Positions 12,044-15,469 of a stretch of 64,000 bases of DNA are shown in pieces. The notes below the pieces were generated by a model. It was not told where the DNA came from. It saw nothing but the letters and a program-made list of their open reading frames with translations, and made no database searches. Source of the stretch: Candidatus Latescibacterota bacterium (GTDB taxonomy: Bacteria > Latescibacterota > UBA2968 > UBA8231); contig CBDFJF010000001.1 of assembly GCA_965248265.1 (NCBI GenBank), positions 1,760,001 through 1,824,000 of the forward strand, written 5' to 3'. How positions within the stretch are numbered: the first letter of the stretch is position 1; each line of letters begins with the position of its first letter. The position numbers were made by a program, and so were the translations under genes.

Positions 12044-12589
12044 GTGCCTGATCCCGCACAGATTCCGCATCTGCTGAGACTGATCGACGATGACTCGGAA
12101 CCCGTCCGCCTGGCCGTCGCCAGCGCGCTGGCAGCGTTTGGTCCCTCGTTGCCGGACGAGTTGGCCCGCCTCACCGAGCCACCCAGTGACGCTCAGATGC
12201 AGATGATCCAGGACCTGCTCGAAAATCATGGCAGGCAAAGCCACGGCGCCCAGGCTGTTGAAGAGAAGGATGCAACCGAACCGCGGTTCGAACCCGGTCA
12301 ACTGGTCGTGCATCGTCGTTATGGCTACCGCGGTGTAGTCGTCGCCTTCGACGTCACCTGTGAGGCGGAGGATGACTGGTACCTGACCAACCAGACCCAA
12401 CCTAGTCGTGACCAGCCCTGGTATCACGTCCTCGTCCACGACTCAGAGCAGATCACCTATGCCGCCCAGACCAGCCTCCAGGCTGACGACTCCGATCAGC
12501 AGATCAGTCACCCGCTGGTCGAGCACTTCTTCTCTTCCTTCAGCGACGGCCACTACTTCAGAAACGACGAGGCCTGGCCGCCAACCTGA
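12044..12589 (+). CDS. HspQ/YccV-domain protein with N-terminal HEAT-like segment
   Basis: FEPGQLVVHRRYGYRGVV, QPWYHVLV and TYAAQ are YccV signatures. Confidence 0.8.
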   Translation: MPDPAQIPHLLRLIDDDSEPVRLAVASALAAFGPSLPDELARLTEPPSDAQMQMIQDLLENHGRQSHGAQAVEEKDATEPRFEPGQLVVHRRYGYRGVVVAFDVTCEAEDDWYLTNQTQPSRDQPWYHVLVHDSEQITYAAQTSLQADDSDQQISHPLVEHFFSSFSDGHYFRNDEAWPPT

Positions 12590-12647
12590 AGTCATCGGGG
12601 AACGGGATCCTGGCCTGGAAGTCCAGGAATTCAGAGAGGAATGGATC

Positions 12648-13196
12648 ATGAGAGGAGCATCTCCGAGAGTAGCCCCCTCGGTGTTGGTGCTGAGTCTGGC
12701 GCTCTCGGGAGCGGTGCCCTCCGGCGCCGGTGAGGCGCTTCAGTTCGTACTGCCCGATATCGATGGCCGGGAATTCTCACTGAAGAAGGAGGTGGGCGCC
12801 GGACCTCTGGTCCTCGATTTTTGGGCTACCTGGTGCAAACCCTGTATCAAGGAACTGCCCGTATTGCAGGAAATCTCCACCGATTACGAGAAGCGAGGCG
12901 TCAGGGTCGTCACCATCAATATTGACGGACCACACAACCAGGCCAAGATTCGACCCTTCATGCATCGTCACCGCTTGCAGCTACCCGTACTCCTCGACAA
13001 GACAGGTAGTGTCATCAAGCAGTTTCAGTTGATATCGGTCCCTTCTACCGTGATCATCTCTTCCGCTGGCGAGGTGGTGTACAAACACTCGGGATATAAA
13101 CCTGGCGATGAGAAGGTATTGCGAAGCAAATTGGATGAATTGCTCGACCACGGTGCACCAATTAACACGAACCAGGAAGTCGAGGCTGGTTCGTGA
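12648..13196 (+). CDS. TlpA-family thiol-disulfide oxidoreductase, exported
   Basis: Signal peptide, LDFWATWCKPC and VPST cis-Pro; GAGAGGA RBS. Confidence 0.9.
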   Translation: MRGASPRVAPSVLVLSLALSGAVPSGAGEALQFVLPDIDGREFSLKKEVGAGPLVLDFWATWCKPCIKELPVLQEISTDYEKRGVRVVTINIDGPHNQAKIRPFMHRHRLQLPVLLDKTGSVIKQFQLISVPSTVIISSAGEVVYKHSGYKPGDEKVLRSKLDELLDHGAPINTNQEVEAGS

Positions 13197-13215
13197 CCTA
13201 TTTCGGAGGCATCCC

Positions 13216-13899
13216 GTGCACTACTGGTCGCTGGCCGTTGCGGCCGCTTGCTCGATAACTCTCGCGACATCACCTTGCGCTGCAATCCCGCAGCTGGGTG
13301 AGCAGGCCCCGGACTTTACCCTGGAACAGTTGGATGGTGGATCGGTCTCGCTGAGCGACTTCGACAGCAAGGTCATCTTCATCAACTTCTTCGGTTACAT
13401 CTGAAGCCAGTGTCTCGCGGAGGCCGCGAATATCGAGCAGATCTGGCAGGATTACCGCGAAAACGAGGATTTTGTCACCATCGGAGTGGACGCGTGGGAC
13501 GGGGCCGCCAATCAGGTAGAAAACCTCTTTCGCGTCCGCACCGGCACGACCTATCCCCTGTTGCTCATGGGCAGACAGGTGGCTCGAGGTTACGGCTTCG
13601 ACCGCCACAATTACGCCGTCGTCGATCACGATCGAGTGCTCCGATATCGATCGACGGGCTCTATCAGCTCACGCTTCGATCCGGACGCCATTCGCGGTGC
13701 CATCGACCTGGCTCTGGCCGCTTTGCCTGGGGCCATGGCCTCTCCTGACTTCGACGGCGACGGCCACGTCAGCTTCACCGATTTCTTCCTCTTCATCGAT
13801 GCCTATGGCACGACCGACCCTCGTTTCGACATGAATGGCAGTGGGGGAGCGGTTGATGCCGAAGATTTCTTCCTCTTTGCCGATCAGTTCGGACGTTAG
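13216..13899 (+). CDS. Selenocysteine-containing AhpC/TSA-TlpA redoxin (UxxC) with C-terminal dockerin-like tail
   Basis: GGAGG RBS and GTG 13216; signal peptide; APDFTL...FINFFGYI-TGA(13402)-SQC continues in frame into the 13486 ORF; hairpin follows the TGA. Confidence 0.85.
13405..13429 (+). promoter_or_regulatory. Putative bacterial SECIS element
   Basis: TCGCGG-AGG-CCGCGA perfect stem (13415-13429) with a G-rich apex about 16-17 nt after the in-frame TGA. Confidence 0.65.
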
Positions 13900-13906
13900 T
13901 CAGCGA

Positions 13907-15469
13907 ATGAGATTGCGCCGAAGTTTCCGCCGGGCACGGCCTGTGGTTGCCCTATCGGTGCTGTTGGCCACTCCACCCACCGACGCGCAGGAGCACCTGC
14001 ACCTGACGGCGCTGACCGAGGTGCAGGTGGGCAACCTGCCGGATCGAGCACCACGGGATCTGCGCACCATCTACCAGCAGTTGAATCTCGACTATACGGC
14101 ATCCGGATTTCAGGCAGGTCTGCGCAGCGAGAACTTTGGCACTGACACCTCGGGGCGTGACTACAACCATCTGGCGCAGCGTTTCGTCCGCTACAACCAA
14201 GGCAACCTGCAGGTCACGGCCGGTCATTTCTTCTCAATTCTCGGCAACGGCCTGCTCATGCACGCCTTCGAGCTGCCCTCCGTGATCACGGAGGACCGGG
14301 GCTGGCGCCGGCGTTACCAGCTGACCCGTGACCTGGATGGTCTACAGATCGGTTACAGGTGGAACAGCACCGAAGTCACCCTGCTGCGAGGCACCCCAGT
14401 CAACAGCGCCCTCCCTCCCGGTGACCTGGGTGGACCTGAGCGTCGCGACGGTACCCTCCAGGGGGGCTCGATCGAGATCCATCCGGTCGATTACTTCAGC
14501 GGCGGCATCGGATTGCTGCAAATCAAGGCAGCCGATGGGGACAAGCTGGGCGCCACCCTTCACGGACGCTGGCGACTGGCTCCTCTGATACAGCGCCTGG
14601 GCCTGGCAGATGTGTACGCCGATCTCTATGGCGAGTACGCCCAGCGCGATTTCGAGGCTGGACGCTGGTTCTCCCTGGATCGCGATTTTCCTCGCGCCCT
14701 ATACCTTTCCAGCACCGTCACGGCCGGTCCCTGGGGATTGAGTCTGGAGTACAAGGATTATTGGGACTTCCTGATCGCGGAGGTCAACAATCCCCCCACC
14801 TTGATCAGGGAACACGAGGCTTTCCTCCTCAACCGCGATACCCATGTACTGCTGGCTGACGACGAGTCCGGAATCCAGGCTGAATTGAGCTACTACTTCA
14901 CGATCGGTCAGGCCCTGACAGCCAACTTCACCAGAGCCGAGCGCCGACAGGGACCAGGGGCGGACGACAACATGGACCTGCAGACGCTCTTTTTACAGGC
15001 GGACTCTCCGCTCGGAGAAAACCTGAGTGGCCAGCTGTGGGCCGATTTCAGCCGCGACCACATTTTTGCCCACGACAACCGCAAATCCGTCGGCACGGTC
15101 GTGGACTGGCAGATCGACGGTACTTATAGCCTCAACACGGACCTCCAGTTCCAGACTGTCGACCGCTCATTCGGCGATCTGGTTTTTCCTTACAAGAACC
15201 TCTACCTGGGATTGGAACTGCACCGGTCCCCAGGTCTATCCGGAGCCCTCCTCGTGCAGCGCTCCACCGATACCCTCGAGACCGGGGCCTCCGAAACGGG
15301 TCCAACCTACTGGTACGGTGGCAGCATCGGCTGGCAGGTCCGCGAAGGCCACAGCCTCAACCTCTTTGGCGGCAAGCGCCGCACCGGGTTGGCCTGCACC
15401 GCCGGCACCTGCTACGAGCTGCTCGGCTTCGAGGGGGTGGAGGTTCGCCTGATCAACCAGTTCCTGTAG
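13907..15469 (+). CDS. DUF6029-like outer-membrane beta-barrel protein
   Basis: Signal peptide, VTAGHFFSILGNGL, SLEYKDY, NNPPTL; C-terminal GKRRTGLACTAGTC and terminal aromatic residue. Confidence 0.7.
   Translation: MRLRRSFRRARPVVALSVLLATPPTDAQEHLHLTALTEVQVGNLPDRAPRDLRTIYQQLNLDYTASGFQAGLRSENFGTDTSGRDYNHLAQRFVRYNQGNLQVTAGHFFSILGNGLLMHAFELPSVITEDRGWRRRYQLTRDLDGLQIGYRWNSTEVTLLRGTPVNSALPPGDLGGPERRDGTLQGGSIEIHPVDYFSGGIGLLQIKAADGDKLGATLHGRWRLAPLIQRLGLADVYADLYGEYAQRDFEAGRWFSLDRDFPRALYLSSTVTAGPWGLSLEYKDYWDFLIAEVNNPPTLIREHEAFLLNRDTHVLLADDESGIQAELSYYFTIGQALTANFTRAERRQGPGADDNMDLQTLFLQADSPLGENLSGQLWADFSRDHIFAHDNRKSVGTVVDWQIDGTYSLNTDLQFQTVDRSFGDLVFPYKNLYLGLELHRSPGLSGALLVQRSTDTLETGASETGPTYWYGGSIGWQVREGHSLNLFGGKRRTGLACTAGTCYELLGFEGVEVRLINQFL

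Follow-up and report, generated by a model that had tools for sequence, protein, structure and literature searches.

Two families of bacterial selenoproteins with selenocysteine (Sec, U) in a thioredoxin-type redox motif come closest to the gene described here. The 'Prx-like thiol:disulfide oxidoreductase' family is assigned to pfam00578 and carries UxxC or UxxU (table of PMC9312934), while the 'thiol-disulfide isomerase-like protein', with UxxC, is assigned to the TlpA-like cd02966 in PMC13188914 and to pfam13905 in PMC9312934. As a UxxC isomerase-like protein is listed in both papers, the kind is established. The text of these two papers, supplements aside, contains no occurrence of Latescibacteria, signal peptides or secretion; a full-text literature search for 'selenoprotein' with 'type IX secretion' found nothing relevant, and the Latescibacteria passages in one paper that also mentions selenocysteine (supplements aside) do not concern this family. 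In this study, we analyzed a stretch of 64,000 nucleotides from a Candidatus Latescibacterota bacterium (contig CBDFJF010000001.1, positions 1,760,001 to 1,824,000), hereafter called the window, whose own numbering is used throughout. From comparisons of sequence, its segment 13216-13899 is very probably a genuine selenoprotein gene, which gene callers split in two at a UGA codon.

A redoxin frame interrupted by a conserved TGA

Under translation table 11, two open reading frames (ORFs) of the plus strand, 13108-13404 and 13486-13899, share one frame and are divided only by the TGA at 13402-13404. A preliminary description of this DNA had joined them into a single gene, with a product of 227 amino acids and Sec at position 63, where the first Cys of a CxxC motif belongs. 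Frame reading and alignment bear this out: read-through from the GTG at 13216 yields exactly 227 amino acids with U63, from a frame with a single TGA inside it, and Cys forms of the family align a Cys at that column. The context is VIFINFFGYI-U-SQC-LAEAANIEQIWQDY, in which the UGA opens a UxxC redox motif. The GTG at 13216 is the best start, 19 nt past the TGA stop of the upstream gene, a Cys-type tlpA. The features of the locus that bear on decoding are the following.

13205..13209, + strand: Shine-Dalgarno-like GGAGG, 7 nt 5' of the GTG, read from the sequence
13216..13899, + strand: very probable selenoprotein gene, 227 codons and a TAG stop, one in-frame TGA
13402..13404, + strand: UGA read as selenocysteine (U63), first residue of UxxC, from the translation and the homolog columns
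13411..13413, + strand: TGT, Cys66, resolving cysteine of UxxC, invariant in the family alignment
13415..13429, + strand: candidate selenocysteine insertion sequence (SECIS) hairpin TCGCGG-AGG-CCGCGA, stem 13415-13420 / 13424-13429, loop AGG 13421-13423

The TGA was found beyond the assembly. Logan contigs from runs X1 and X3 (depths 14.2 and 6.9) are identical to the window over 13100-13801, TGA included; they were assembled independently, probably from the source sample of the window, so that they do not count as independent samples. A relative in run X6 spans the same stretch with 71 differences, and none of those listed, which leave out 31, falls at 13402-13404. Given these identical contigs, and the TGA present in 79 further matches from other genomes, the probability that sequencing or assembly turned a TGC or TGT into this TGA is negligible.

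Conservation of the TGA was measured at two scales. A six-frame search of 76 genomes of the same family detected an internal TGA in all 72 redoxin-domain matches listed. Across the phylum, a 176-residue domain query (E <= 1e-18) matched 82 times, in 58 of 168 genomes and across four families; 80 of the matches have one TGA and the other 2 have none. From 59 further loci retrieved for frame reading, 60 other hits were examined, and read-through places U in the same column in 59, within a motif [FL]-G-[YFHN]-x-U-x-x-C; all further Sec copies read, among them those of genomes G114 and G116, have the TGA again in that same column. The exception among the 60 is L061 (G007:C1:4136750-4137226), in which an extra TAG breaks the frame. 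Another copy of the same genome, L078 (G007:C1:3075301-3075645), ends early, after about 110 domain residues, and two of the four copies of G007 thus look decayed.

Coding constraint extends over both sides of the codon. In alignment A2 the family-invariant columns are G60, C63 (U), C66, A70 and E74, and conservation within the family is highest over the 27 codons from the TGA to the first downstream start (13405-13485), which encode C66, A70, E74, W77 and Q78. As this segment holds the most conserved residues, the second ORF cannot by itself be the real gene. Orthologs have kept the TGA with coding conservation before and after it.

The two matches of the phylum without TGA are Cys forms. One is in G114, where GYSCKYC (Cys) and GYTUTYC (Sec) copies stand in tandem, and the other in G116, where a GFRCPVC (Cys) copy is found alongside two Sec copies. 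A profile search of 1.84 billion representative proteins returned 58,917 relatives at E <= 0.001, 67 of them at E <= 1e-30. An FG-type CxxC motif was present in 100 of the 148 proteins newly returned from the best 150 of these relatives, and in a domain alignment of 109 FG-type Cys forms the U column is Cys in 106. By these alignments, the gene is a member of a Latescibacterota-wide clade in which Sec stands where the members of a widespread redoxin family, F-G-[YN]-x-C-x-x-C, have their first Cys.

The genome (7.32 Mb in 2 contigs, 92% completeness, 4.4% contamination) has the machinery that such decoding needs. A tRNA-Sec (68.9 bits; SeC with anticodon tca according to ARAGORN), selB (332.8 bits) and selA (560.9 bits) lie on contig C1, the one that contains the window, so that a binning error is no issue for these three; selD (352.2 bits) is on the other contig, and all four score above curated cut-offs. 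The selD match (G000:C2:1010876-1011799) itself contains one in-frame TGA, hence selenophosphate synthetase is probably a selenoprotein here. In the phylum, selA was found in 131 of 168 genomes, including all 58 that have the redoxin gene, and the five genomes of the same family without selA (G001, G002, G003, G062, G063) gave no match to the redoxin gene. The preliminary description had proposed to check the TGA in raw reads, and to look for Cys or TGA in this column of homologs and for selA, selB, selD and tRNA-Sec in the genome; assembled contigs show the TGA, and the others turned out to be present.

That description had also pointed to the hairpin TCGCGG-AGG-CCGCGA about 10 nt past the TGA, which is indeed there and fits the bacterial SECIS model. 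As given in section 5 and the legend of Fig. 2 of the 2026 review PMC13188914, the consensus places an apical loop of 3-9 nt, with a G within its first two nucleotides, on 4-16 bp of stem; the loop lies 16-37 nt from the UGA, and the folding energy is at or below -7.5 kcal/mol. The hairpin of the window, with a 6-bp stem, 10 nt from UGA to stem, 16 nt from UGA to loop and -9.1 kcal/mol in a 35-nt context, passes all four criteria of that source, its 16-nt spacing being the lower limit. In the ungapped alignment A1 (51 distinct sequences), 83.8% of the cells of the named 7-pair helix are paired, versus 33-48% after a shift of the 3' arm by 1-3 columns, a comparison that favours the named helix since it was derived from the same sequences. 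Both sides have changed at four pairs; at one column pair, 36 sequences have G-C and 13 have U-A. None of 500 shuffles reached the covariation score, 0.182 versus 0.072 +/- 0.012 after shuffling, a difference that related sequences can also produce without any structure. In divergent paralogs the peptides encoded there differ (LAEAA, LSRAES, KAEAAS, ISEAPR, RAAAPD), and the hairpin is kept at the same place. The Ala codons within the stem are frozen (GCG 44/44, GCC 55/60, GCG 40/42), and two other conserved Ala columns have mixed codons (1.48 and 1.58 bits).

Some results weigh against a functional hairpin. Taken alone, the 65 nt of 13396-13460 fold no better than shuffled sequences (z = -0.15), RNAalifold on A1 returned three unrelated pairs and no hairpin, and the Cys paralogs of G114 and G116 retain a similar hairpin-forming stretch. 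The hairpin is therefore not exclusive to Sec forms, which makes this control uninformative. An Rfam scan of 12500-14500 gave nothing relevant, with one chance snoRNA hit at E = 0.8.

Could the TGA be a true stop, leaving a pseudogene or two separate small genes? Table 11 does split the frame, the five closest relatives in the public protein collection (74-89% identity) are found there only as unnamed post-TGA fragments of 131-151 amino acids, and decay of copies does occur, as the extra TAG of L061 illustrates. We nonetheless consider a stop very improbable: conservation in the family peaks in the segment 13405-13485, 80 of 82 matches over four families retain the TGA, which is unexpected under independent decay, and Cys forms align at the column while every genome with the gene has Sec machinery. 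If one of the standard amino acids were inserted (Trp, Cys or Arg, through a near-cognate tRNA or a reassigned code), read-through alone would likewise yield a full-length protein. This too has very little probability, since the site is the catalytic Cys column of a CxxC, a SECIS-like hairpin stands at the canonical distance, and the Sec system is complete, with tRNA-Sec, selA and selB on the same contig. Moreover, TGA is the commonest stop: of the 967 long ORFs on the plus strand of contig C1 it ends 570, and the upstream tlpA ends in it too; the genetic code is thus standard, and a reassigned code was rejected on this ground. Overall, the comparative evidence supports decoding of the UGA at 13402-13404 as selenocysteine.

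Fold, active site and possible function

Pfam assigns residues 27-151 to AhpC-TSA (5.3e-12; 46.2 bits, cut-off 26) and Redoxin (2.3e-10). In NCBIfam, no ResA or TlpA model exceeded its cut-off (PRK03147, ResA, 47.9 bits for 170; NF047696, TlpA, 21.2 for 230), and none of the selenoprotein models reached its own with the window protein. The domain was delimited by profile matches in the PDB and by Foldseek:

13294..13725, + strand: predicted TlpA/ResA-like thioredoxin-fold domain, about residues 27-170

A profile of 39 family members searched against the PDB found 3kcm first (2.9e-18), then 2ls5, 3hdc and ResA. The AlphaFold2 model has a mean predicted local distance difference test (pLDDT) of 82.8, with means of 10-residue blocks at or above 90 over residues 21-170, and Foldseek matched it to ResA (1su9 and 4nmu) with target TM scores of 0.86-0.87. 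In this model a helix, residues 64-80, starts right behind U63, and the start of helix 1 is the classical position of the attacking residue. The protein is therefore TlpA/ResA-like by profile and by predicted fold. The kinship with 'AhpC/TSA and TlpA' suggested in the preliminary description stands for its TlpA half, AhpC/TSA being retained only as the name of a Pfam model.

The active site nevertheless departs from that of TlpA and ResA. At the column of the cis-proline (residue 131) the window has His, and Pro occurs in none of the 59 Sec sequences; the same column is Pro in 32 of the 38 non-gap cells of W-x-x-W type and in the neighbouring TlpA, and Asp in 97 of the 109 F-G-type Cys forms. 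At residue 132, Arg is found in 0 of 59 Sec sequences versus 80 of 109 Cys-form relatives. At residues 137-138, 57 of the 59 Sec sequences have Asp-His, and the Cys forms have Lys or Gln at 138. These columns suggest that the use of Sec was accompanied by a remodelling of the active site, with an Asp-Arg pair lost and an Asp-His pair gained.

One alternative concerns function alone: instead of a disulfide reductase or isomerase, the enzyme might be a selenium-dependent thiol peroxidase of peroxiredoxin type that removes peroxides outside the cytoplasm. AhpC/TSA is the best Pfam model, the 1-Cys and BCP peroxiredoxins (AhpE, Bcp1, Bcp4) are also good structural matches, and the clade, like peroxiredoxins, is devoid of the TlpA-type cis-proline. 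Peroxidases such as GPx do use Sec. However, membership in the peroxiredoxins was examined and rejected, as the PxxxTxxC signature is absent: the window protein reads I-N-F-F-G-Y-I-U, lacking Pro at -7 and having a Gly at -3 that is invariant in the family, and no Sec sequence has Arg at the column where most Cys forms have it. In addition, the top profile and fold matches are of ResA/TlpA type, and the spacing of UxxC is that of thiol-disulfide oxidoreductases. We therefore regard a peroxidase as unlikely, though with more to be said for it than for any of the alternatives on decoding, and retain a thiol-disulfide oxidoreductase of TlpA/ResA type as the preferred function.

Predicted export, tails and neighbouring genes

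Both ends of the protein carry features suggestive of life outside the cytoplasm, and two genes are packed against it.

13216..13284, + strand: putative signal peptide, residues 1-23, MHYWSLAVAAACSITLATSPCAA / IPQ, with a hydrophobic N-terminus and a small-x-small site
13747..13890, + strand: dockerin-like double EF-hand tail, DFDGDGHVSFTDFFLF ... DMNGSGGAVDAEDFFLF, pLDDT 55-66
12648..13196, + strand: Cys-type TlpA/ResA-like redoxin with FWATWCKPC; Pfam AhpC-TSA (1e-22), Redoxin and Thioredoxin_8
13907..15469, + strand: DUF6029 gene; Pfam DUF6029 1.5e-15, atlas clusters 100% DUF6029

The pLDDT is about 50 over residues 1-20, and homolog N-termini are comparable, with an AxA end a few residues before a conserved G[DE]xAPDF. 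The C-terminal 55 residues hold two DxDxDG-like loops, with an FFLF helix behind each of them. Among the Sec homologs of the same family, FlgD_ig is found at the C-terminus in 47 of 59 and Por_Secre_tail in 36 of 59, both of which sort proteins for type IX secretion. In three further families of the phylum, the Sec homologs have dockerin-like tails as in the window gene. Por_Secre_tail was above cut-off in 10 of 13 tested Cys-form library proteins. Signal-like N-termini combined with sorting or dockerin-like tails indicate a family built for export, and the product of the gene is apparently exported, or extracytoplasmic. The preliminary description had proposed an exported selenoenzyme in an uncommon location. 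The selenoprotein part of this holds, and export is read from the sequence; the location is not unprecedented, SaoB and SaoC being described as selenoproteins 'exposed to the extracellular milieu' in bioRxiv 10.1101/2022.07.06.499078.

The genome of the window has 8 cohesin matches over cut-off, six dockerin-like tails (tblastn) and 46 Por_Secre_tail matches at E <= 0.001, part of them under cut-off. A prediction of the cohesin-dockerin complex (score 0.04, mark 0.34) was informative neither way. One 1824-codon frame (G000:C1:2754934-2760207, minus strand) combines a cohesin over cut-off, a dockerin-like tail and a sub-threshold Por_Secre_tail of 24.7 bits, and would fit a type IX-exported surface scaffold.

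Other architectures were encountered among the relatives. Two Sec homologs, L051 (G022:C206) and L052 (G023:C25), include a beta-lactamase-family domain (PF00144, best E 7.7e-67), fused in between the redoxin domain and the C-terminal sorting region. In the genus g12 paralogs L072, L080, L081, L070 and L083, long acidic ETVE/EEAE repeat linkers of variable length run from the redoxin to the sorting domain.

Regarding the neighbours, the upstream TlpA scores 102.9 bits with the NCBIfam ResA model, under the cut-off of 170, and its gene is likely an operon partner of the selenoprotein gene. The DUF6029 gene begins 7 nt past the selenoprotein stop, the three genes being tightly packed; its protein has a CTAGTC cysteine pair near the C-terminus. 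Across the 59 other loci, a TlpA homolog adjoins the Sec gene in at least 23 and a DUF6029 homolog in at least 32 (L038-L084, in varying orientation), counts that are lower bounds since the flanks retrieved were only 0.9-1.5 kb. The single DsbD_TM match of the genome lies elsewhere (C2:3946776).

Further Sec candidates were also sought. A rough scan for ORF pairs joined by a TGA elsewhere in the window yielded 178, most of them spurious, with no further UxxC or CxxU among them. At G000:C1:837125-837286, a TlpA-like frame with the sequence LLNF*STTCPFC has a stop where the first Trp belongs. It was rejected as a second candidate, because the stop is not TGA and the frame decays downstream, and it is probably a pseudogene.

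A scheme for the thiol-disulfide oxidoreductase can be proposed from these elements. The hairpin 13415-13429, inside the coding sequence, very probably recruits SelB with Sec-tRNA(Sec), and Sec is inserted at the UGA 13402-13404 in place of termination. The pre-protein would then leave through the Sec translocon by means of its N-terminal signal peptide. In the mature thioredoxin-fold domain, U63 at the N-terminus of helix 1 would attack a disulfide or another oxidised sulfur or selenium substrate, and the resulting U63-C66 selenenylsulfide would be re-reduced by a thiol relay. This relay may plausibly be the co-transcribed Cys-type TlpA paralog, fed by the single DsbD-type membrane reductant of the genome. 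The dockerin-like tail would anchor the enzyme to surface proteins that bear cohesins, at the place where most relatives carry a type IX sorting domain.

Several points speak against parts of this scheme. With no cis-proline in any of the 59 Sec sequences, the chemistry may differ from that of TlpA and ResA, and the redox direction, the substrate and the re-reducing partner given above are those we infer. The dockerin assignment is at or below thresholds, with dockerin_GC (NCBIfam) at 29 bits, equal to its cut-off of 29, and Dockerin_1 (Pfam) at 17 bits for 22.9. Finally, Pfam detected no sorting domain of Por_Secre_tail type in the window protein, which leaves its passage across the outer membrane unexplained.

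A broader proposal may be tentatively put forward, which we hold to be possible but rather doubtful in its entirety. The F-G-x-x-U-x-x-C redoxins of Latescibacterota might be the first described bacterial selenoprotein clade beyond the periplasm, most of them as type IX cargo and some, such as the window protein, docked by a dockerin-like tail on cohesin scaffolds. With the Cys-type TlpA and DUF6029 they might form a conserved redox module of the envelope or surface, the switch to Sec having come with the loss of Asp-Arg and the gain of Asp-His.

Significance and comparison with described systems

Recognition of this gene corrects a systematic annotation error that affects a whole clade, with no fewer than 80 genes spread over 58 species-level genomes. 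As its close relatives are present only as nameless C-terminal fragments, the whole clade has been invisible to protein-based surveys. It also brings onto the map of selenium utilisation an uncultured phylum in which Sec use is widespread, judging from the distribution of selA, and it links selenocysteine to proteins with type IX and dockerin-like tags. If the enzymes truly act outside the cell, they would offer a natural test of Sec over Cys in an oxidising environment, and the Sec/Cys paralog pairs of G114 and G116 are ready-made comparisons.

Compared by description only, the gene shares with the Prx-like selenoprotein family an AhpC-TSA domain, a UxxC that begins with Sec and a bacterial SECIS located inside the reading frame. 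It differs by its F-G-[YFN]-x-U-x-x-C clade, by the missing cis-proline and by the secretion or anchoring tails. With the thiol-disulfide isomerase-like selenoprotein, again compared by description only, it has in common a TlpA-like fold, UxxC and an origin in marine metagenome surveys. The NCBIfam model NF041054 describes another ResA-like selenoprotein, of WAxxUGC type, with a different motif and Sec position; at E <= 0.01 it gave no match to the window selenoprotein and matched only the neighbouring TlpA, with 65.3 bits for a cut-off of 300.

The classical thiol-disulfide oxidoreductases ResA, TlpA and CcmG (1su9, 4nmu, 3kcm, 2ls5) have the same fold, a redox motif likewise placed where helix 1 begins, and an export signal at the N-terminus. 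In the window, Sec stands for the first Cys and F-G-Y-x for the W-x-x-W before the motif, and in its clade the cis-proline is replaced, Asp-His occupies 137-138 and a dockerin-like or type IX tail is added. The Cys-form F-[FL]-F-G-[YN]-x-C-x-x-C type IX redoxins (such as P0042, P0051 and P0075) also have an invariant Gly at -3 and no cis-proline, and in them, as in the Sec clade, a redoxin is followed by a sorting domain. They differ by Cys in place of Sec and by Asp-Arg at 131-132 (97 and 80 of 109), positions that are variable in the Sec clade. The gene is thus an uncurated addition to the known UxxC thioredoxin-fold selenoproteins. Two traits set it apart: an active site that has been remodelled and is without the cis-proline, and the tails for secretion or anchoring found in its clade, the tags being the fresh element.

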